A stretch of DNA of 55,016 bases, filler included, from Squatina squatina (GCA_031763465.1; 3 parts of 3 records of this genome joined end to end with filler, not necessarily neighbours in it), one strand, 5' to 3'. Counted from the whole stretch's first letter, positions 12,762-53,182 are shown. Notes: generated from the sequence alone by a model not told the origin. Translations and numbers: made by a program.

Positions 12762-13320
12762 TCATTCTTCCTGTTTACAGACTGAAGTACATACTGAACA
12801 TGAATCATTATACCACAGAATTAGGAAACATGCTACCTGTTGCAATATGACTACTACTTCATGTGGCTGATGTAGGGCAACAACTATCATTTTACATTTA
12901 GGTGGATAAGCCAGATAATTGCACCAGGAGTAGTGGAGTTTGTCGCTCTGATGCCTCCTTTGCATTTGGGAATCGGACATCGAGTTGTTCTACGTTCCAT
13001 GGTCTGTTCTGGGTCGCATACTGAAGGGGTTTTATTTGTGCATCAAGTATCCCCATCTGCCATGGTTTGTGCGGGTGCAGTTTTAGGGTTAACCATTTGC
13101 AGAAGATCGGAGCCAGTGAGCTTCCGATTCAGATCTTTCATGAGGCGTTTGTGACTTTTTGTGAACGCCATTCGGCTTTCCAAGCATCGTCAGGAGTGAA
13201 GTCACATTGTCGAAGGTTAANNNNNNNNNNNNNNNNNNNNNNNNNNNNNNNNNNNNNNNNNNNNNNNNNNNNNNNNNNNNNNNNNNNNNNNNNNNNNNNN
13301 NNNNNNNNNNNNNNNNNNNN

Positions 13321-15540
13321 CCACATTTTCACCACTCCCTGTGGGAGCGAGTTCCACATTCTCACCACTCGCTGTGGGAGCGATTTACATATTCTCACCA
13401 CTCTCTGTGGGAGCAAGTTCCACATTCTCACCATTCCCTGCAGGAGCGGGTTCCACATTCTCACCACTCCCTGTGGGAGCGAGTTCCACATTCTCAGTAC
13501 TCCCAGAAAGAGCGAGTTCCACATCATCATCACTGCCTGTGGCAGCGCGTTCCACATTCTGACCACTCTCTGTAGTAGCGAGTTCCACATTCTCACTTCT
13601 CCCAGTGGAAGCGAGTTCCACATTCTCACTAATCTCTCTGGTAGCGAGTTCAAATTTCTCACCACTCCCTCTGGTAGCAAGTTCCACATTCACACCACTC
13701 CCTAGAGAAGCGAGTTCCACATTCTCATCAGTTCCGGTGGCAGCGAGTTCCACATTTTCACTACTCCCTGTGGGAGCAAGATCTACATTCCAACAACTCC
13801 CTGTGGCAGCGAATTCCACATTCTCACCACTCCCTGTGATAGCGAGTTCCACATTCTCACCATTCCATGTGGCAGCGAATTCCACATTCTCACTACTCCC
13901 CGTGAGAAAGAGATCTCACATTTTCATCACTCCCGGTGGGACGAGTTCCAGATTCTCACTTCTCTCCGTGGATGCGCGTTCCATTCTCACCCCTCCCTGT
14001 GGGAACGGGTTCCACATTCTCACCATTCCGTGTGGTACCGAGTTCCACATTCTCACTACTCCCTGTGGGAGCGAGTTCCACATTCTCACCATCCCTGAGG
14101 CAGCGATTTCCACATACTCATCGCTCCCTGTGGGAGCGAGTTCCACATTCTCACCACTCCCTGTGGGAGCGAGTTCCACATTCTCACCACTCCCCATGTT
14201 AGCGAGTTCCACATTCTCACCACTCCCTGTGGCAGCAATTTCAACATTCTCACCACTCCCTGTGGTAGCGAGTTCTACGTTCTCACCCCTCCCTGTGGGA
14301 ACGGGTTCCACATTCTCACCACTCCGTGTGGTAGCGAGTTCCACATTCTCACTACTCCCTGTGGGAACGGGTTCCACATTCTCACCACTCCCTGTGGTTG
14401 CGAGTTCCACATTCTCACCACTCCCCATGTTAGCGAGATCCACATTCTCACCATTCCCTGTGGGAGCGAATACCACATTCTCACTACTCCCCGTGGGAAA
14501 GACTTCCACATTTTCACCACTCCCTGTGGGAGCGAGTTCCACATTCTCACCACTCGCTGTGGGAGCGATTTACATATTCTCACCACTCTCTGTGGGAGCA
14601 AGTTCCACATTCTCACCATTCCCTGCGGGAGCGGGTTCCACATTCTCACCACTCTCTGTGGCAGCGAGTTCCACATTCTCACCTCTCCCTGTGGGAGCGA
14701 GTTCCACATTCTCACCACTCGCTGTGGGAGCGAGTTACATATTCTCACAACTCCCCTGTGTCGGCGAGTTCCACATGCACATCACTCCCTGTGGAAGCGA
14801 GTTCCACATTCTCACCACTCCCTGTGTGAATGACTTTCACATTCTCACCACTCCCTCTGGTAGCCAGTTCCAAATTCTCACTAATTCCTGTGGAAGCGAG
14901 TTCCACATTCTCACCAGTCCCTGTGGGAACAAGTTGCACATTCTCACCACTCCCTTTGGGAGCGAGTTCCACATTCTCAACACTTGCTGCAGCAGCGATT
15001 TTCACATTCTCACCAATCCCTGTGGTAGCGAGTTGCAAATTCTCACTACTCCCTGTGGTAGCGAGTTCCACATTCTCACCACTCCCTGTGGCAGCAATTT
15101 CAACATTATCACCACTCCCTGTGGTAGCGAGTTCCACGTTCTCACCCCTCCCTGTGGGAACGGGTTCCATATTCTCACCACTCCGTGTGGTAGCGAGTTC
15201 CACATTCTGACTGCTCCCTGTGGGAGCGAGTTCCACATTCTCACCACTCCCTGTGGGAGCGAGTTCCACATTCTCACCACTCCCTGAGGCAGCGAGTTCC
15301 ACATTCTCATCACTCCCTATGGGAGCGAGTTCCACATTCTCACCACTCGCTGTGGTTGCGAGTTCCACATTCTCACCACCCCCCATGTTAGCGAGATCCA
15401 CATTCTCACCATTCCCTGTGGGAGTGAGTTCCACATTCTCACTACTCCCCATGGGAAAGACTACCACATTTTCACCACTCCCTGTGGGAGCGAGTTCCAC
15501 ATTCTCACCACTCGCTGTGGGAGCGATTTACATATTCTCA
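13321..15540. repeat. 33-bp minisatellite (about 67 units) derived from CR1 LINE ORF2 3' region
   Basis: Unit TTCTCACCACTCCCTGTGGGAGCGAGTTCCACA; the minus strand reads VVRMWNSLPQG repeatedly; same sequence as 9002-9034 in a CR1 copy; fills a whole contig. Confidence 0.95.
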
Positions 15541-17755: not shown

Positions 17756-18887
17756 CTGAAACATAGAATTGTTTGGTTTTAAAAACTTGAATATGTTTGG
17801 TCCCAACTAGTCAAACTACAGCTTTTTAGCAGTACTTTGTAGTGTGCTCCAGTTACTGTACGGTACGAATCAAGCTGCACTGACTGTTCAGCCTGGGGAC
17901 AGATTTCTCTGGCTAATCTTTACACACAAGCACAAGATGGATCACTAGCGTATATCATACTGAACTCCAACTGTGAGAGTACTTTTAACATAGTAAAATG
18001 TACCAAGGTACTTCACAGGAGTGTAATCAGACAAAAATTGACACTGAGCCAAAGAAGGAGACATTAAAACAGGCAATGGTCACAGAGGTAGGTTTAGGGA
18101 AGGAATGCCAGAGCTCAGAGCCTAAGCAGTANNNNNNNNNNNNNNNNNNNNNNNNNNNNNNNNNNNNNNNNNNNNNNNNNNNNNNNNNNNNNNNNNNNNN
18201 NNNNNNNNNNNNNNNNNNNNNNNNNNNNNNNAATGGGCAAGCACATTGCTGTGGGTCTTGAGTCACATACAGGCCAGGCTGATTTCTGGGATGGAGGGGG
18301 GATTATCCCATGAGGATAGATTGAGTAGACTGGGCCTGTATTCTCTAGAGTTTGGAAGAATGAGAGGTTTAGAATCGGAGGGGGCCGGGCCGTGGGGATG
18401 CCGCCATTCGGATGAGACGTTAAACCGAGGCCCCATCTGCTCTCAGGTGGACGTACAAGATCCCACGACCACTATTACGACAAAGAGCAAGGGGGGGCGT
18501 TCTCCCCGGGGTCCTGGTGCTAATATATTTATCCCTCAATCAACATCACTAAAAACAGATGATCCGGGTCCTTGTGGGAGCTTGCTGTGCGCAAATTACA
18601 ACAGTGCAAAAGAAGTACTTAATTGGCTGTAAAGCCCTTTGGGACGTCTGGCGGTTGTGAAAGGCAATATATAAATGCAGGTGTGTCGTTCTTTATTCCC
18701 CTACACTCCATGTGGATACAAGGCCCACCTCCCTGCCTCAGTAGTCGGACAGTGCACAGCCCGTGACGCGCTGGTCCGTGCTGGAGTTCCCCATAAGGTG
18801 GGTTTCCCCCAACCCCACAGTGTCGCTGTCTGAGGCGCCGCTCTCCAACGCCACACCCGGTCACCTCCACCGCGAACCGGGCCTCAC

Positions 18888-19058
18888 CTGTATGAACTGT
18901 CTTGTGACTGGCCAGGTTCCCCTTGTAGCGAAACGCAGCCTGGCACATGTCGCACTTGTAGGGCTTCTCGTCGCTGTGAACCTGCAGGAAGTGACGCTGC
19001 ACCGACTCCTCGTCCAGGAACTTCAGCTCGCAGGTGCTGCAGGAGAAGAGGCCGTTCT
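18888..19058 (-). CDS. BCL6B: BCL6-family BTB-zinc-finger exon (ZF1-ZF2), probably BCL6B
   Basis: tttcttgcag|AG AAC...ACA G|gtgagg, 171 nt, phase 1-1; ENGLFSCSTCELKFLDEESVQRHFLQVHSDEKPYKCDMCQAAFRYKGNLASHKTVHTG; FRYKGNLASH is the BCL6/BCL6B signature; ZF1 divergence from BCL6 and co-scaffolding with GABARAP favour BCL6B (inference). Confidence 0.75.
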
Positions 19059-42698: not shown

Positions 42699-42798
42699 NN
42701 NNNNNNNNNNNNNNNNNNNNNNNNNNNNNNNNNNNNNNNNNNTTAATTAATTAANNNNNNNNNNNNNNNNNNNNNNNNNNNNNNNNNNNNNNNNNNNN
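42699..42798. other. Synthetic scaffold-concatenation linker (N44-TTAATTAATTAA-N44)
   Basis: TTAATTAATTAA at 42743-42754 flanked by 44 N on each side. Confidence 0.95.
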
Positions 42799-42925: not shown

Positions 42926-43230
42926 AGGAAATCTTGGAGCCGGCGATCTACATTGACCCAACTTCTGCTGCAGTTTCCATCAGAGACCGCGTTGCCATTC
43001 CCTGCAAAGGTGACATTCGCTCCCGAGGGGGGATATTTCACTTGTTCAAAGATGGCAAACAAATTCTTGTTCAGAATCGTAATTTGACTGGCGATGAGAG
43101 GAAGCTGACCTTCAACATAAATATCCGAGGTGAAGAATCTGTGGGAATTACAGCTGTCGATATGAAACAGAGGTTGCAGTGAATTGGAGGCAGTCACCAT
43201 TCAGTAAAGATGTCACGATGACTGAGAGAG
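42926..43230 (+). pseudogene. Ig C2-type domain exon of an LRC-like (LILR/KIR/A1BG-type) receptor, with a 1-nt deletion frameshift
   Basis: cacag|AG GAA...AGA G|gtagag, phase 1-1, 305 nt; EEILEPAIYIDPTSAAVSIRDRVAIPCKGDIRSRGGIFHLFKDGKQ...LTFNINIRGEESVG / (frameshift about 43145) NYSCRYETEVAVNWRQSPFSKDVTMTER; shows the C-x-F-x-L-x-K-x-G, G-x-Y-x-C-x-Y and S-x-x-S-x-x-V patterns. Confidence 0.82.
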
Positions 43231-43734
43231 GTAGAGACCAACAAATATCATTTTGTGTTCAAATGTTCTTGTATATCAATATCTGATTGCTTTGCTCATA
43301 TATATTTAAGATACATGTCCAAATCCATTTAAAATCGCTCCGAAATGTTTATATTACCCAAAAGCATTTAACTGGTTGCCTGTTACTGACCTGCTGTCTT
43401 AACTTTTGCATTGGTGCTGCATGGCCGACAGAGGCTAAAACCGCCACCTTTTAAACCCAAACACTGGCCGGGAAATCAGAGCTGGGAAGTTATTTATCTC
43501 TGCTTCTTTACATGCATGGAAATGCCAGGAAAATGCTGAGGTCTTGTTCAATTCACATTCAGCAGCGTGCACCAGCGGTATGCTCACTGCATACCTTCAA
43601 TGTTGCTTTATGGGATATGGCTCTCTGCATAAGTATAATATTGTGTTAACTCACACAACAAATCCCACTCAACCTTCCCGCCTGCGCTTGGTGACTGACT
43701 TGGGCCCATGGTTAACCAAAGCATCCATTTCAAA

Positions 43735-44341
43735 ATGCACATTATTGCTTTCAAATCACATCCATGGGCCGCACCCCTTCTCTTGCAATGTAAACTCCTC
43801 CAGTCCCTACAATTTTAAACCTCCTGATTAAATCCCTCCATGGCCTTCGCCCCCGATAATTTTTTTAACCTCTGCCAGCACCTACAATTCTCATCCTCCT
43901 GTTCAAATCCCTCCATGGCCCCATGCCGACTCTCTATCGCTGTGAGCTCCACCAGCGACTACAATTCTCACACTCCTGTTCAAATCCCTCCATAGCCCCT
44001 CGCCCCCTCCCTATCTCTCAAAAATCCTCCAGCCCAGTAACCAACCGAGATCTCTTCACTCCTGCAATTCTGGCCTCTTGAACATCCTCCAATTTCCATC
44101 GCTCCACCATTGGGACAGATCTTCAGCTGTCTGGGACCTGAGCTCGGAAACTCCCTCCCTGAACCTCTCCGTTCACTCTCCTCCATAAAACCGATTAATT
44201 TCACCAAGATTTTGGTCACCTGTCCTAATGTCTCCTGTTGTGGCTCGGTGTCGAATGTTGCATATCCTGATTCTCCTGTGAAGCGCCTTGGAACTTTCCA
44301 CAATGTTAAAATTGCTATATAAATAGAAGTTGTTGTTGTTG
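43735..44341 (+). mobile_element. L2 LINE 3' end with about four tandem copies of a 76-bp internal segment
   Basis: aaatccctccatggcc-like motif at about 43752, 43830, 43904 and 43981, followed by a normal L2 tail ending (gtt)n. Confidence 0.8.
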
Positions 44342-44806
44342 AAGGTGAAACCAGCAAGTGAATTGTGCCTAATGAACCAAACTGCAGCTTAGAAATTTCG
44401 AACAGACATTGGTAGGAAAACTGTGCACATACTCCAGGTGTGGTCTCAGCAAGGCTGTTTTGAATTGCAGTAATACGTCTTTACTCCTGCACTCAAATGC
44501 ACTGTTACTAAAATCCAAAATAACATTTTCCATACTAATTGCTGGCTGCAGCAACATGTTCGCTTTCAATCTTTCGTGTACAAGGAGACCCAGGTCACTC
44601 TGAACAACAACATTTCCCAATCTCTCACCATTAACAAAGAACACACTGAATTTCTGGAACAAGGTAACTGAATGTCGAGAGCGATGACAAACAGGCGAGC
44701 AGTGTGATATTGCCAATTTCGTTCCAATTTCCCACCCATGTTCAGTTTCATCCCCGTAGAATCATATTCAAATCAACGGAAGTTATTTCCTGGCACAGTT
44801 TATAAG

Positions 44807-44863
44807 GTGCAACTGATGCAAAGACGTCAGTCAGCCCAAAAGGAGCATCCAGTGTCATTAAAT
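44807..44863 (+). CDS. Candidate Ser/Thr/Pro-rich stalk exon of the Ig receptor
   Basis: ttataag|GT GCA...AAA T|gtattg, 57 nt, phase 1-1; GATDAKTSVSPKGASSVIK; lies 88 nt upstream of the TM exon. Confidence 0.45.
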
Positions 44864-44951
44864 GTATTGTGCTTTCTGTGGGACAAATGCTAAGATTTCT
44901 CCATTACAGCTGAACTCTTAGAAATGTCCCGTCTTTTTCTCACCCGTATAG

Positions 44952-45053
44952 AGGCAGACAACAGATTCTTGCTGAGCGTTGGCCTGGGGTGTGCAGCTGG
45001 GATCACCGTTTTACTGTGTCTGGCGCTAACCTGGTTCCAGATCGCAAAGAGAA
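44952..45053 (+). CDS. Transmembrane exon of the Ig receptor, 102 nt
   Basis: Polypyrimidine tract then gtatag|AG GCA...AGA A|gtaagt; EADNRFLLSVGLGCAAGITVLLCLALTWFQIAKR is an uncharged hydrophobic helix followed by basic stop-transfer residues. Confidence 0.82.
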
Positions 45054-45459
45054 GTAAGTGACCATGGGAAAGGCGACACGAATTTTCAGATGAACTGACA
45101 TCTTCGAAAAGCTGGTCGGAATGTGTTACTTCTCCAAAGCAGCATTAAGATTTTGAAAGTTGTGGGCTAAGTAGATGGTGAACGGTGCTGAATATTTGAG
45201 CTGAAATGCATTACTGTCTATTGGAATGTTGGCCCTGGATTTTGCGGGGAAATTTTTTGTGTGCACGTCATTGCAAATCGCCCAGCAAATTCCAGAGTTC
45301 CATAATTGCTGTGCTTGTGCGGAACCTGGAATTTGTGTCCTGTCAATATGTGCCTTGAGAGATTATTCCCATGTGATTCAAAGAGCTCATTACTGGTGCA
45401 AATTTGCGCTATTTGCACAAATATTGCTCAGGGTGTGGCCGCAGAAACCCAGCATAATG

Positions 45460-47660
45460 AAAGCATAGAAATAGGAGCAGCAGTAGGCCACTCAGCCCAT
45501 CGAGCCTGCTCTCCCAGTCAACAGCATCATGGCTGATCTTCTACCTCAATGCCATTTCCCGGCTCTATCTCCATATGCCTTGATTCCTTTAATATCTAGA
45601 AAGCTGTCGATCACTGTCCTGAATTTACTCAATGATTGACCATCCACAGCCCTCTGGGATAGAGAACTCCAAAGATTTACCACCATCTGAGTGAAAAAAA
45701 AATTCTCCTCATAGTTTTCCTAAATGTTCAGCCCGTATTCTGAGACGATGGCCATTGGATGTAATCCCCACATCCAGGGGGGAATCTTCCATCTAGCATC
45801 AAACCTATCGAGCCTTGTAAAAATTGTGCATGTTTTAATGAGATCACCTCACATTCTTCTTAGCTCGAGAGCATATAGGCCTACTCTACTCAATCTCTTC
45901 TCACAGTACAATCCCCCATCCCATACATTAGTCTGGTGAACCTTTGTTGCATTCCCTCCATGGCAAGTTTATCCTTCTTGATGTACAGAGAGCAAAACTG
46001 TGCACAATACTCCAGTTGCGGTCTCATCAGGACTCTATATAATGATAGTACGACATATTTGTTCCTTTACTGAAACCTCCAGTATTAAAGGTCAACATAC
46101 CATTTGATTATTTTCTAATTCCGTGCTGTACCTGCATGTTAACTTTCAATGTTTCATGGACAAGGACACCCAGGTCCCTCTGAACATCAGCATTTCCCAA
46201 GCTCTCACCTTTGAAAAAATACTTGCATTTCTATATTTTCCTCGCAAAGTGGATAACTGCCCATATCTCCACATTATAATCCAGCTGCCAAGTTCTTGCA
46301 CACCCACTTATTAAAACTTTGAACCTACTTTATCTGTAATAAGCATTGAACAGTGGACATTTTGATAGCTTAGGACACATTACGTGTTGCATCTAACACA
46401 GTTTTCTCATGTTTTCCCATTGTTTCCTGCCAGCATCAATGCGAAGGCAAAATATTGAGAGGTTCAGAATATGGGGAGAACAGGAGAACATAAGAAAAAG
46501 GAGCAGGAGTCGGCCTTTCGGCCCCTGGAGCCTGCTCTGCCTTTCAACCAGACCATGGTTTGTCTGACTTTGGGCTCAATTCCACTTCCCTGCCTGTTCC
46601 CCATATTCCTTTACTCTCCTGCTGCTCACAAATCTGTCTATCTCAGCCTTGAATATATTCAATGACCACCCTTGGTCCAGATGTGCTCATGAGGGGAAAC
46701 ATCTTCTCAGCATCTGCACTTTCAAGCCCCCTTCAGAATCTTCTTTGTTTCAATAAGATCACCTCTCCCCCTGTTCTAAACTCCAATGAATATAGCCCCA
46801 TATTTTCAAACTTTCCTGAGATATCAACCTCTCAATCCCAGCAATCAACCGATTGATCCTTCTCTGAACTGTCTCCAATGCAAGATTAACCCTCCTAAAT
46901 AAGGGGAACAAAACTATTCTAGCTGTGCTCTCAGCAGCATCGTGTAAAGTTTTAGCAAGATTTATATTCCATCCCCCTTGAAATAATGGCCAACATAAAA
47001 CTTCCCTTCCCAATTACCTGCCACATCAGCATGTTCAATTTTGTTTTTCATGTGCGATGACACAAAAATCCCTCTGCACCACAGCATTCTGTAGTCTCTC
47101 TTCATTTAAATAATATTTTGTTTTCTTTTCTTCCCGAAAAAGTGGATAAGCTTACATTTCCCCATATTTTACTTCATCTGCTAATTTTTGTCCACTCCCC
47201 TAACCTATCCATATCCCTTTGCAAAATCGGTGTCTGCTCCTCACAACTTGCTTTCCCAACTATCCTTGGATCATTCGCACATTCGGAAACAATTCATACG
47301 TTCACTTCATCCAAGGCATTAATTGAGATTGTTAACAGTTGAGGTTCCAGCAGTGATCTCTGTGACACCCCAGTAGGTATATTCTACCATGCTGAAAATG
47401 ACTCCTTTATCTCGGTTTTCGGTTCATGTGCAAATCCTCTATCCACAGCAATATATTACAACCCTAAAACATGAGCTCTTTTCTTGTGCAGTAATCTTTT
47501 ATGTGGCCCGTTAGCGAAAACGTTTTGGAAATTCTAGTATACTACATCTACTGGTTGTGCTTTATCCAGACTACTTTGTACATCCCCACAGAAATTAAAC
47601 CAATTTGTCAAACACGATTTCCCTTTCAGAAAACTACATTGAATCTGCTTGTTTCTGTGA
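45460..47660 (-). mobile_element. Two decayed CR1 copies (45460-46310, 46485-47660) flanking the 28-nt exon
   Basis: Each begins (on plus) with the inverted CR1 3' terminus catagaaataggagcag / cataagaaaaaggagcaggagtcggcc. Confidence 0.8.
46434..46461 (+). CDS. Cytoplasmic mini-exon 1 of the Ig receptor, 28 nt
   Basis: tgtttcctgccag|CA TCA ATG CGA AGG CAA AAT ATT GAG AG|gttcag; phase 1 to 2, which is needed to link the TM exon to the 53-nt exon; donor is weak. Confidence 0.5.
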
Positions 47661-47810
47661 TGGTTTTCTAAATGTTCAGAGTTTTACAAATTTTCTTGAA
47701 TCACTCATGCTAACTAATATTCATTACATCTTAGGTGGGGGTGTAGAGAGCAAACATTCATTCATTTTGGGCTAATTTTCGGACAAAATTGCATTTTCTT
47801 GACCTTACAG

Positions 47811-47863
47811 GAGTACAACCTCCGCATGTGGAGACACAAATCATGTGGTCGCTGAAAACACTG
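47811..47863 (+). CDS. Cytoplasmic exon 2 of the Ig receptor, 53 nt
   Basis: ccttacag|G AGT...ACT G|gtaagt; STTSACGDTNHVVAENT; phase 2 to 1. Confidence 0.65.
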
Positions 47864-49679
47864 GTAAGTGCAGTGCTGATTGTCCTGACTGACTTTAACC
47901 AACAATATTTGAACTAATGGCCAGAATATGCCATTGAATTCAGCAGCAAGTTCAGTTTTCCACAGCTGCATGCAAATGCACAACATCTCGAAAATGTTCT
48001 CAGTTAAGGTCAGACACGACAGATTGAGAAATTCTAATTGCTGACACAGAGGTCGGCTGAATGTTCAGCAACCGACCGGTAAAATGAACATTTCATGGAT
48101 TATACAAACAGTACCGGGTATCTGCTAGCATGAGCGTAAGATTATGCCGCCTAGAAAATTGAATTCGTTTTTAAAGATATTTGTGGCCGGAAAAGGAAGC
48201 ATTTTAGGATTTTTTAACCTGAAGGTGCTCAAACGTCTTAGTCCTGAATTCGCTCTCCCGGCATGTGCTTGGGAGGAGTACATTCTACCAAATGGGGCCT
48301 GCAAGTTTGTAGTTCAGGCATTCGAGGTGCATTCACCTAAATGTGGAACATGTGATCTATCAAGAATTCTCTTGACAGAACTCTAGCATCCGGAACTGAA
48401 GCGTCTCCGTAAGCAGAGAAATGGGCTATTTGCATTGGAGGCCGTTGAGAGAAGTTTCAATGCATTAGCGGCATTTCAGTCAGTTCACTAGGTGGTTTCA
48501 CTAGGTTGGTTCTGGGTCTGGAAGGTTTATCTTATGAGGAAACGTTGAGGAGGTTGGGCCCATACTCATTGGAAAGAAGAAGCATGAGGGATGATCGTAT
48601 TGAAACATATAAGATTTTCAGGGGGCTTGAGAGGTAAATGCTGAGAGCACGTTTCCCCTTGTGGGGGAACTAGAACTAGGGGATATAGTCTCAGACTAAG
48701 TGGTCACAAATTAAAGATGGAGGAGGATATCCCCACTGTTATGGTTATTCGGAATCACAATAATAGAAAATGGAATAGGCCTCCCTACCTTGATTTGTTG
48801 AGCTGGCCCACATGATCCCAGGAATGTCCATAGTATATGTGGATCACTCGTCGCCGGTACCCGGAGAGGCCCAGGACTACAATCCTCTGAAACACCTGGG
48901 ACACAATGTATTGCTCAGGTCAAGGGCATCCGCCAGAGGATGCCTCTAATTTCATGGCCAAATTAATTACAATTCCCATGGCTGATCTTCTACCTCAAAT
49001 TTTCCTCTACTACCCCCATATCATTAGCTGTCTCTAATATCTAGAAATCTATCGATCACTTTCCTGAATATACTCACCTAACCTGTTGAGTCCTGCATGA
49101 AATTGATTTGTTTCAATGAGATCACCTCTCAGCCTTCTAAGCTCTAGAGAATAGAAATCTAGGCGACTCAATCTCTCCTCATAAAACAATCCCACCGTCC
49201 CAGAAACAGCCTGCTGAACCTTCATTGCCCTCCCACTAATCAATTATATCCTTCCTTCGGTCACGAAAATGGTGCAGGCAGATTGATGAGAGATGTGATA
49301 ACACTGTTGTGGTACAGCGAAGCAATGCATTGCTCCCAGACTCAGGGGAAGACATTGATTATTGCCCCTTTTGGGGCGGCCACTTCTGAGAGGTGGGAAT
49401 CTTAGTGCCAATCTATTACACCTCAAGAAAAGCTGGGCAATAAGGGAAGTTTAACTTTGGACCCTTTAAAACATTTAAACTTATATTTTAAAAAGGTCCC
49501 TTTCCCTATTACGATTAAATTAAATGATATTTTAATTAACTTAACATGTCTTGTTTTATTCATTAATCATTAGGTGTATTTTGGGTATAGTCCCTACATG
49601 CTTATGCTGAATCCCCAGATATGGATAAATTACTTAGCTATTACCATCTCCGTTTTGTCTTGCTCCATCTCTTAATGTC

Positions 49680-50450
49680 AGAGTATTATTTAAACGGAGA
49701 AAAACTGCAGAAAGCTGCCTCACAAAGAGATTTGTGGGTCCTTGTACATGAAACACAGAAAGCTAACGCACAATTCCAGCAGGTAAAAAGGAAGGATAAT
49801 GGACTGTTGCCCTTTATTTCAAGGGGGTTGGAGTGTAGAGGTAAGGAAGTCTTTCTGCAACTAGACAAGGCACCAGTGAGAACACATCTGGAGTATTGTT
49901 AGCAGTGTTGGTCCCCGTATTTAAGAAAGGATATAAATTCATTGGCGGTGGTTCAGAGAAAGTTCACTAGGATGATTCCGGGTATGGAGGGATTGTCCTA
50001 TGAGGAAAGATTGAAGAGTTTGGGACTCTACTCATTGGAATTTAGAAGAATGAGAGGAGATCTTACTGAAACATGTAAGATTCTTAATGGGCTGGACAGG
50101 GCAAATGGTGAGAGGATGCTTCCTTTCATGGGTGAGTCTCGGACCAGAGGACACAGTCTCAGAATAAAGGGGCGCCCATTTATGACAGAGGCAAGGAGGA
50201 AGTTCTTCTCCCAGAGGGTTGTGAGTCTTTGGACCTCCTTGCCAAAAGTGCGGTGGAGGCTGTGACATTGTCCATATTTAAGTCCGAGATAGATAGATTT
50301 CTAATGAGTAAGTGAATCAAGGGTTATGGGGAGAATGCGAGCAGGCGGACTTGAGAAATGTCGGATCAGCCATGATCCAATTGAATGGCGGAGCGGGATC
50401 GACGGCCCGAATGGTCTAATCCTGCTCGTACTTCTTCTGGTCTTATGGTC
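49680..50450 (+). mobile_element. CR1 LINE 3' fragment
   Basis: YYLNGEKL...RTHLEYC; VQRKFTRMIPGMEGLSYEERLKSLGLYSLEFRRMRGDL...FFSQRVVSLWTSLP. Confidence 0.9.
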
Positions 50451-50636
50451 TATGTCTCTTAATGTCTATTAATCTCTCCAGCCTCCCGCTCTATCACAGA
50501 CCTTCCCTTTTGTTGTTTCCTCTGCCTCCCCCAAACGCCTGATTTACTCCTGAGCAGCAAGCTGGAATTCAAACCCATTTTCTCCCGCGGGGAAAAGAGG
50601 CAGAGACTGACACAACATAAATATTCTTTTTTTCAG

Positions 50637-50674
50637 ATGACACGGGAAAACTCCCTACACATCCTGATGCAGAT
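50637..50674 (+). CDS. Cytoplasmic exon 3 of the Ig receptor, 38 nt
   Basis: ttttttcag|AT GAC...GAT|gtacgg; DDTGKLPTHPDAD; phase 1 to 0. Confidence 0.6.
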
Positions 50675-50789
50675 GTACGGATACATGTTTTTTTTTTGTT
50701 GAAATTCTGGTATTCTGAAATTAAGTATCTTGCTCTGTAAACAGCTCATATTGAGACAGTGAGGAAGCACAAGTACAGTGACCAAGGGA

Positions 50790-51435
50790 GAGAGAGGGAG
50801 AGAGTTAATCCGGACTAAAGGACAAAGAAAGAGACAGAGAGACAGAAACACAGATTGAAAAAGACTGAGAGCCGGAGAGTGCAATAGAGAGAATGCTAGA
50901 CAGTGAAAGTGGGTAGTGAAGAGGTTGGGAGAGTGTAGCGAGACAAATGAAAATAGAGAGAGATACAGAGGGAGAGAGGCAGTGCGATACAGAGAGATGT
51001 AGACAAAATAGGGACTGAGAGAGAGAGAAACAAAGAGAGATAGAGAGAGAGAGACAGACAGCGAGAGAGAGACAGAGAGACAGAGAGACAGAGAGACAGA
51101 GAGAGACAAGAAGATATACACACATTGAGAGACTCAGAGAGAGAGAGGCAGAGAGAAAGAGATGGAGAGAAAGAGATACAGAGAAACAGACAGACAGAGA
51201 CANNNNNNNNNNNNNNNNNNNNNNNNNNNNNNNNNNNNNNNNNNNNNNNNNNNNNNNNNNNNNNNNNNNNNNNNNNNNNNNNNNNNNNNNNNNNNNNNNN
51301 NNNNNNNNNNNNNNNNNNNNNNNNNNNNNNNNNNNNNNNNNNNNNNNNNNNNNNNNNNNNNNNNNNNNNNNNNNNNNNNNNNNNNNNNNNNNNNNNNNAA
51401 ATGAGAGGGAAAGGGCGACAGAGAGAGAAAGAGAG
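50790..51435. repeat. Degenerate (GA)n/(GACA)n purine-rich microsatellite with an internal gap
   Basis: gagagagaga gagacagaca... runs; in the last intron of the Ig receptor. Confidence 0.9.
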
Positions 51436-51550
51436 GGGGATTCAGAGAATCAGATTGATAGAAAGAGATCAGCATGAGTCCGGTAGAATTAAAAGAAAAT
51501 GTACATGTATATACTTTATGTTTGCCCTCTCGCCACATTGTTCACCACAG

Positions 51551-51685
51551 GGGAAATTTTCCGAAGTACCAGAGAGCGACCCTCAGGAGATCATCCATGC
51601 TACTTTGAATATGGAAGCTATCAGTCAGAAGGAAGCTGCCTCGGTCACTGAGACCAACCTGTACGCCAAAGCGGAAAATAAATAA
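51551..51685 (+). CDS. Terminal cytoplasmic exon with degenerate ITIM and ITIM/ITSM-like motifs
   Basis: ccacag|GGG, phase 0; GKFSEVPESDPQEIIHATLNMEAISQKEAASVTETNLYAKAENK-stop; DPQEIIHATL parallels KIR/LILR DPQEVTYAQL. Confidence 0.75.
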   Translation, partial: GKFSEVPESDPQEIIHATLNMEAISQKEAASVTETNLYAKAENK

Positions 51686-53182
51686 TGGCCCAAATGTTCC
51701 ATGCCCTATGACAGCTTATGCACCATAATTGCCTCAAGCGTGACAATACGGAACATACGAACTGCCGAGAATCTTTATGAACGATCCTGCGCATCCTCGG
51801 GTAAAATGGTCATCCACTTGCCGAGATTGAGGCTGTTTGTCCAACTCTTGCCCAGTGAAACCCCAGGACAATCTTAAACCTGGTAAAACCATAAACGCAA
51901 TGCCTGCATTTACCAGCAAAATGGTACAAGTAAATATCATCTATTTTCTTCAATCATTTTAACATTCAAATACCTATCAATTAGGTTTCAGTTATTTAGT
52001 CCCCATTGACATATGTCTTAATTTATTTTTCGAAACATTACATTTGAGTTTAAGTGTTGAATTGTATTTTAAAACTGTCTATTTAAATTGTATTTTAATT
52101 TAATTTAAACATGCCATTTTTATTCCAAGTTAGTGCACATGCATTTTTGGAGCGTTTCCGATTCAGCTCAGGGGGATTCTGTTCGAGAATGGAATCCCAC
52201 ATCAACGTACAAGATTCCGCTTTCTGGTTGGTTGTGCTGGCTCACATGATCCGCACACACTCCTGAGATATGTGGGCCTCGACACAGGCGCAAACATTGA
52301 GGCCCAGGAGGGCTGGTATCCATGGGCCAAGGTCCATCATGTAGTTGGGTAGATTATTGCAGTTCAGAGATAACTGTCTCCGAAAAACAAATTCAGGCAC
52401 CTTGGATGGAATTCTTAACCAATGCTCCAGTGATTTAATTTATTTCTATTGATGTAAAAACCCTTATGCTGTTAAAAGCAGGCCTGTGCACTTGCGTTTT
52501 CCAAGGCATAAGTAATTAAAACACATTCCCTGCGCATACCTTGGGCAAATAGGCCTCCACTCAGGGAAGCTCTTATCCAGGGGAGGCAGTGGTTCAGTCA
52601 AGACAAATCTTTACAGATTGGAAGGTCTGGATTCAGGGGCAGGCACATTGCAGCCCCGAAACCACGAAACTTGTGGGGGCTCTCTGGCTTTTTGGGCACT
52701 CTGAGAGTGTGGACTATCTGCCGGATTACTTTGGAGAATAGCAGGATCAGAATGCTGGCAGCACACTTTGTACATCCCAGCACAACGAGCCGGAGTTTTC
52801 CTGTCCATTTATCACAGAATGGAAAATGGTGCAGGTTCGGTGACAGGACTGTGAATCTTCCCACCAAATTTATATGCTTCGCCGAGAAGATGCGTAAAGA
52901 CCATTTGTCAAAGACGCAAATCTTCAACCATGTAGCCTTTTTTAGCTACATAACTTATAATCTGTTTTATTAAGTGAATGTCGCATATTTGCAGTTCCAT
53001 GTAGCAACATGTGTTATCCCAATTGTTTTCCATCATTTATTCTGCCAGTGTCATTTATCATATATGACATTTAGTGTGAGGAAAATTTGTTTAAAAAATA
53101 TCTTTAAGGCAAAGTTTGAATGTCAATTTGGATGCAGCTGTAAAAATAAACAATATTTACGCTAGGAAATAGGTGTTCCTTA

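Follow-up and report, generated by a model that had tools for sequence, protein, structure and literature searches.

The question raised by this locus is whether sharks possess paired immunoglobulin (Ig) receptors of the leukocyte receptor complex (LRC) type, as represented by mammalian LILR and KIR and chicken CHIR, and whether the gene found there is a working member. The locus lies in a 55,016-nucleotide stretch of DNA from Squatina squatina (GCA_031763465.1), referred to here as the window, in which three scaffolds are joined end to end with filler and the third carries the gene on the plus strand. The initial annotation had described it as an unannotated, seven-exon inhibitory receptor with tandem ITIMs (immunoreceptor tyrosine-based inhibitory motifs) and had placed it in a shark family of LRC-type paired receptors. 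From the analysis described below, we hold with modest confidence that sharks carry an expanded true LRC, consisting of tandem two-domain C2 receptors with ITIM-bearing forms, activating forms with an Arg in the transmembrane segment (TM) and secreted forms, and that the gene in the window is one decayed member of it.

Full-length homologs are organized as signal peptide, two Ig domains (D1 and D2), TM and cytoplasmic tail, and the Ig exon in the window corresponds to D2, with 57% identity to the D2 of the Pristiophorus homolog P0005 over 96 columns. When the Ig and TM exons and those of 28, 53, 38 and 135 nucleotides were joined, with X placed at a frame break in the Ig exon, the product of 219 amino acids was co-linear with shark proteins from end to end with a single gap of 2 amino acids, being identical to P0066 (Pristiophorus) at 128 of 218 positions (59%) and to P0005 at 120 of 218 (55%). 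The tblastn search with P0005 as the query gave E values of 5.5e-25 for the Ig exon, 4e-5 for the TM exon and 1.9e-10 for the last exon. AG and GT were present at every splice site of the six exons, and the exon boundaries recur as break points in isoform models of the homologous genes, at the start of the TM in P0070 and P0074 and past the 28-nucleotide exon in P0190 and P0192. Judged by sequence similarity, the six exons are real, a chance origin being excluded because of these E values and the end-to-end alignment.

The lengths and AG/GT ends of the seven exons initially proposed were all found, but their mutual phase compatibility did not hold for the seventh, a 57-nucleotide stalk exon (44807..44863, plus strand). 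Its junction with the TM exon forms a stop codon (T+AG), it is just one of the 37 open phase-1 AG..GT candidates of 15-120 nucleotides in the intron between the Ig and TM exons, and the closest homologs splice D2 straight to the TM with no stalk segment; for these reasons, it was judged spurious and is most likely intron sequence. An in-frame alternative acceptor at 44958, which would save the stalk, was rejected because homologs retain the residues that it removes. A short insert between D2 and TM is present in the more distant homologs P0018, P0064 and P0069. The splicing and frame repair suggested at the outset gave a product co-linear with shark proteins, with the stalk dropped.

Among the 29 phmmer matches of the Ig piece, 25 were from cartilaginous fish and 1 was from a turtle, and the other 3 (P0019, P0022 and P0025) resembled unrelated repeat proteins and were dropped. 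The 73-amino-acid Ig piece of the window alone gave no significant match in PDB, only sub-threshold Ig matches in Pfam and no word-index match among longer proteins. Family members were found as RefSeq or UniRef models in 13 shark species, as exemplified by P0066, P0005, XP_067833428.1 of Heptranchias, XP_067878020.1 of Heterodontus and XP_041038155.1 of Carcharodon, under automatic names such as LILRB2-, LILRB3-, LILRB5-, LAIR1-, TARM1-, OSCAR- and IGSF1-like or simply as uncharacterized. Automatic LRC names outside mammals are described as usually misleading in one study (PMC6557307). The family is, therefore, not unannotated, as had been supposed; it is already annotated, by pipeline only, and is little studied. 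Wang, Belosevic and Stafford reportedly described an LRC-like gene in the elephant shark in 2021, which would lower the novelty of the family. No published description of the expanded shark family was found in a literature search mostly without subscription papers, and a term search of the elephant shark genome paper (PMC3964593), covering its main text plus a single supplementary file, gave no match for LRC.

The models are similar to the window copy in that D2, TM and tail are co-linear at 41-59% identity and the junctions match in isoform models, and they differ from it in having open frames with one or two ITIMs, whereas the window copy is frameshifted and has none. P0005, which has two ITIMs, and P0031, which has an Arg TM and a short tail, were identical at 198 of 220 ectodomain residues, and P0050 and P0014 at 153 of 183. 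This degree of sequence identity indicates that the family is paired, comprising ITIM members and Arg-TM members with near-identical ectodomains. Isoform models devoid of the TM were also present (P0032). In Heterodontus, P0009, P0010, P0014, P0023 and P0068 share a contig of 27,249,576 bases with accessions in the range XP_067878019-484, and this co-listing suggests a tandem array. Related domains were also observed in another group of multi-Ig receptors from sharks (P0001, P0002, P0004, P0013, P0020, P0023 and P0027), in which some have one ITIM, one has an Arg TM and some have no clear tail. Besides these, P0007 (XP_051864821.1, Pristis pectinata, 3218 amino acids) is an unusual, uncharacterized mosaic, in which many HIDE1/LRC-like Ig domains are interleaved with SRCR domains.

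The tail sequence quoted in the initial annotation and the uncharged nature of the TM were both confirmed, and the inhibitory function assigned to the gene was not. With 305 nucleotides, the Ig exon lacks one base for a length divisible by 3, the break precedes the second cysteine, and the assembled frame ends at a stop at 43180-43182; an intact D2 would not be producible from this copy as assembled. In the tail, the first motif is I-I-H-A-T-L, with His (CAT, 51596-51598) at the position of Tyr in homologs, and the second is N-L-Y-A-K-A, in which the Tyr (51662-51664) is without ITIM flanks. The second motif fails both the ITIM pattern, (I/L/V/S)xYxx(L/V), and the pattern of the ITSM (immunoreceptor tyrosine-based switch motif), TxYxx(V/I), and the scan of the window tail with these patterns found zero ITIMs or ITSMs. 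The first ITIM was present in 12 of the 13 inhibitory-type homologs and two ITIMs were present in 9, the sole ITIM-less one being P0072, which ends early. The four tail Tyr residues of P0066 and P0005 are represented in the window by Asp, Phe, His and the one Tyr without ITIM flanks. Because of the frameshift in the Ig exon and the lack of an ITIM, the window copy in its assembled form does not encode a functional inhibitory receptor.

The departures extend beyond these sites. At columns with 70% conservation, the window departs at 13 of 65, and the five homologs closest to it depart at 3-6 of 51-54. The mean hydropathy of its TM is 2.34, compared with 2.68-3.59 in seven inhibitory-type homologs. 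The copy is probably a pseudogene of the shark receptor family, and most likely it would represent debris from birth and death in a tandem cluster. Pseudogenes are frequent in such clusters, as in the case of 41 of 103 chicken CHIR loci given in the section of the source concerned (PMC1458963). Speaking against this view, all 13 of the family-invariant columns are kept, there is a single frameshift with zero in-frame stops across the 219 codons, and the frameshift may have arisen through an error in the assembly. The presence of one frameshift only, together with the retention of the invariant columns, implies that any decay is recent or partial.

The same features allow another explanation, in which the copy is expressed as a signal-dead decoy that competes with its paralogs for ligand, with the loss of ITIMs having been selected and the frameshift being either an assembly error or bypassed by skipping of D2. 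Models of the closest homologs omit D2 entirely (P0074) or leave it at an internal donor (P0070), which is kept in the window on the 5' side of the frameshift, and the splice sites of all six exons are intact. Moreover, 3 of the 6 ITIM-defining residues are changed, and, given the departure rate of 12-20% at conserved columns in this copy, the post hoc probability of three or more such changes is 0.03-0.10; this is not small, however, and the departures at conserved columns and the less hydrophobic TM are what would be expected from general decay. D2 skipping would still leave a tail without ITIMs and, hence, no inhibitory signal. We regard the decoy as the main rival to the pseudogene for the window copy and as an unlikely one.

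The predicted fold of the family was evaluated on homologs of the window copy. AlphaFold2 models were those of P0005 (mean pLDDT, 72.4) and the D2-only isoform P0029 (70.4), not of the window protein. LRC structures led all four fold searches, in which Foldseek and VIA-align were each used for P0005 and P0029. For P0005, the top 10 rows of VIA-align were all LRC, CHIR-AB1 being the best (Z 15.1, root-mean-square deviation [rmsd] 1.5, 92 aligned), followed outside LRC by PECAM-1 as the best (Z 11.7, rmsd 10.9, 183 aligned) and FCRLA (Z 11.3, rmsd 2.1, 84 aligned), and D1 of P0005 was also matched to CHIR-AB1. For P0029, the top 8 rows were LRC, with chicken CHIR-AB1 again the best (Z 13.8, rmsd 1.6, 93 aligned) and FCRLA lower (Z 9.6, rmsd 2.6, 85 aligned). 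The family profile searched against PDB matched 132 sequences, and the best 60 were dominated by LRC receptors (PirB, LILR, KIR and OSCAR). Atlas feature matches of P0005 were non-discriminating, with IGSF1, allergin-1, TARM1, PECAM1, HIDE1 and LILRB3 mixed at 0.96-0.97. As far as the predicted models indicate, the C2 domains of the family are closest in fold to those of LRC receptors (CHIR-AB1, OSCAR, LILR, LAIR1 and KIR).

The TM and the tail gave comparable indications. The TM of shark P0024 has Tyr at -7 from the Arg and Glu at +17, which is the register of the seal TARM1-like P0167, and the Arg-bearing NxxR-type TM is regarded as the most conserved LRC element in the study cited above (PMC6557307). 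The last exon of P0066 aligned with five marsupial LRC tails with scores above all 500 shuffles (p < 0.002) and a Tyr spacing of 24 versus 25, and its alignment with two goldfish LITR tails was within the shuffle range (p 0.12 and 0.28). A fish CD22-like tail also exceeded the shuffles, which means that the tail alignment test is non-specific. The shark family is similar to mammalian LRC receptors (LILRB, LAIR1, KIR, OSCAR, TARM1 and NKp46) and CHIR in the first-ranked C2 fold and the paired ITIM and Arg-TM forms, and to the mammalian ones also in the TM register and ITIM spacing. It differs from them in domain identity, which is approximately 20-27%, and from mammalian LRC receptors also in the absence of the Asn of NxxR, the lack of a stalk exon in the closest homologs and the presence of four tail exons.

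Of 237 domains extracted for the trees, 97 were retained after thinning, and removal of the 21 that belong to the SRCR mosaic P0007 left 76; a smaller tree of 53 rows omitted the D1 domains of sharks along with their other multi-Ig rows. The sampling was without KIR, CHIR, HIDE1 and mammalian FCRL, P0186 being the sole true FCRL. In the 76-domain tree, the shark D2-type clade that includes the window domain (96/85) was sister to tetrapod LRC (100/98) at 97/85. FCRL and LITR were separated from the shark domains by a branch with support of 92/86, 78/70 and 86 in three trees. The larger tree favours the LRC placement and the smaller one does not, as described below.

Several results weigh against this placement. 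In the 53-domain tree, shark plus LRC received a bootstrap of 12%, the shark domains grouping instead with sauropsid HIDE1-like ones (68/82), and a grouping of shark D2 with LITR/FCRL survived the approximately unbiased (AU) test (p 0.126). A quick tree with a mixture model gave the joint shark-LRC branch an SH-like approximate likelihood ratio test (SH-aLRT) value of only 82. By hidden Markov model (HMM), the window domain scored 43.0 bits against the sauropsid set, 27.7 against mammalian LRC and 17.4 against LITR plus FCRL. In PDB, FCRL5 was second by summed score among the best 60 of the 132 profile matches and first with P0005 as the query, and PECAM-1 (Z 11.1) was level with KIR3DL1 (Z 11.2) in the VIA-align search with P0029. 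The shark TMs are without the Asn of NxxR, and Gln or His replaces the Arg in P0009, P0014, P0016 and P0071; Xenopus FCRL/SLAM receptors also use an NxxR-type TM, according to the passages on them in two sources (PMC4536121, PMC6557307). The tail plan that the initial annotation had taken as a mark of LRC receptors, short cytoplasmic exons with a terminal motif exon, is not specific to them because CEACAM1 has a similar plan, with three cytoplasmic exons and both tyrosine motifs in the last in the gene structure given in PMC2832619. No LILRB exon sizes were found in the accessible part of PMC12827074. Because the trees are unstable, LRC membership is not settled, and the sequence trees lean to the LRC side.

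Some of these results would be explained if the family were not orthologous to LRC but formed a sister lineage with a sauropsid family of HIDE1 (C19orf38)-like multi-Ig proteins, the pairing and ITIM tails having been gained in parallel. Among tetrapods, the sauropsid proteins P0006, P0169 and P0177 are the most similar to the window domain, and the best pairwise score was with this set for the window domain as well as for 17 of the 22 D2 domains of sharks (21 of 22 by HMM); as the set was retrieved with shark queries, however, this similarity is biased upward. Both groups pass the cut-off of Pfam Ig_C19orf38 (PF17737), in the case of sharks with D2, and share a TM start of the GC-A-x-G type, and tetrapod LRC forms its own clade (99-100) without sharks, the shark domains being outside it in all trees. 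On the other hand, the sauropsid proteins have three to six Ig domains with no activating partner seen, and the P0006 and P0169 tails yielded no ITIM, whereas the last exon of the sharks aligns with marsupial LRC tails and the 76-domain tree joins shark D2 with LRC. The two readings are partly compatible, as both could belong to one wider superfamily. This sister lineage is the main rival to LRC membership for the family and seems rather improbable. The bird proteins P0169 and P0177, automatically named FCRL4 and FCRL2, and the turtle P0006, named A1BG-like, group as a single sauropsid family separate from the true FCRL P0186, and these names look wrong.

It is far less plausible that the family belongs to the FCRL/LITR lineage or represents ITIM receptors of the CEACAM or Siglec type. 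FCRL and teleost LITR resemble it in C2 domains, paired signalling types and ITIM tails, and CEACAM1 in having three short cytoplasmic exons, the last of which carries two tyrosine motifs; the high summed scores of FCRL5, the AU test and the best match to LITR in 6 of 21 shark D1 domains also point in this direction. FCRL and LITR nevertheless score lower in sequence and fold: LITR, FCRL or CD22 was the best match for none of the 23 D2 domains (22 shark and the window), rows of FCRL, CD22 and CEACAM were well under those of LRC in both VIA-align searches, and the LITR tails aligned no better than chance. CEACAMs have an N-terminal V-type domain. The shark family, judged on full-length homologs, has C2 domains only, unlike CEACAM, Siglec and CD300, and a V-set match in Pfam was found in 0 of 12 scanned family proteins, which have one to three Ig domains.

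Taken together, the folds, TM register, ITIM spacing and paired ectodomains in 13 shark species make a shark LRC likely. What had been called a shark LRC-type paired family, thus, stands as a paired Ig-C2 family with Arg-TM paralogs that fold and profile searches rank nearest to LRC, with its LRC membership not settled. By analogy with mammalian and avian receptors and from the anatomy of homologs, a signal peptide and the two C2 domains would be followed by one of two anchors. Inhibitory members, in which the TM is uncharged and the two ITIMs are spaced by 24-25 residues, may recruit SHP-1/SHP-2 upon ligand binding, and activating members, with a near-identical ectodomain, short tail and Arg TM, may pair with an adaptor of the FcR-gamma type that carries an immunoreceptor tyrosine-based activation motif (ITAM), whereas TM-less isoforms would be secreted.

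The features of the locus are listed in Table 1. The first exon starts 127 nucleotides past the second of two artificial N44-TTAATTAATTAA-N44 linkers, which lie at 27988-28087 and 42699-42798, and a search of the whole window with the family profile detected neither a leader nor a D1 exon, in agreement with the initial suggestion that the leader and upstream Ig exons lie beyond the scaffold start. The third scaffold holds just one gene fragment, and no D1, leader or paralog exons were found in the other two. The scaffolds are unrelated, and adjacency across the linkers does not represent synteny. Internal N gaps are numerous in the window. The last intron includes a GA-rich microsatellite (50808-51470) with an N gap (51203-51398), and the introns at 45462-50460 contain several repeats like short and long interspersed nuclear elements (SINEs and LINEs). 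Elsewhere, a 33-nucleotide tandem array at 13237-15540 has dozens of copies with approximately 80% identity, and its unit matches dispersed copies like LINE fragments at 1974, 5368 and 10938, which makes a LINE-derived minisatellite likely. An exon-like stretch on the minus strand of the first scaffold (18880-19050) encodes C2H2 zinc fingers (Pfam zf-C2H2 over the cut-off), presumably resembling those of BCL6/BCL6B.

Table 1. Features of the receptor locus in the Squatina squatina window (positions counted from the first letter of the window)
Feature	Position	Strand	Remarks
Scaffold linker, N44-TTAATTAATTAA-N44	42699..42798		Leader and D1 exons beyond linker
Ig-C2 exon, membrane-proximal (family D2)	42926..43230	+	305 nt, phase 1-1, frameshifted
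Internal phase-1 donor AAG/GT (cut after AAG), 5' of frameshift	43009..43011	+	Pristiophorus isoform model P0070 exits D2 at matching residue
One-base frameshift	43143..43147 (about)	+	Just upstream of F-strand Y-x-C
TM exon	44952..45053	+	102 nt, phase 1-1, uncharged TM
Cytoplasmic exon	46434..46461	+	28 nt, phase 1-2; P0190 and P0192, isoform models of Pristiophorus, diverge at corresponding point
Cytoplasmic exon	47811..47863	+	53 nt, phase 2-1; split codon Asp versus Tyr (NTYD) in closest homologs
Cytoplasmic exon	50637..50674	+	38 nt, phase 1-0
Last coding exon	51551..51685	+	135 nt including stop TAA, phase 0; decayed ITIM pair
Candidate polyadenylation hexamers, putative	52515..53150	+	ATTAAA 52515, AATAAA 53145

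The window copy itself is of little weight because it is likely a pseudogene, and the family matters more. In the sections concerned, shark homologs of LRC receptors with C2 domains only were not detected in a 2014 survey (PMC4016189) and a 2026 survey assigns the KIR/LILR cluster to Mammalia (PMC13262535), and a shark LRC, if true, would contradict these statements of both surveys. In the parts of other studies that deal with the subject, the LRC region has been placed on a proto-gnathostome microchromosome (PMC8302630), and a LILR-like system has been proposed, on LITR evidence, to be approximately 450 million years old (PMC8562567). The shark proteins named here bear on how LRC-type paired receptors originated and provide a test set for synteny, adaptor pairing and ligands, with MHC class I, collagen and Ig among the candidates. 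If the shark family is truly LRC, the paired LILR/KIR/CHIR system with an FcR-gamma-type TM would date to the ancestor of jawed vertebrates.

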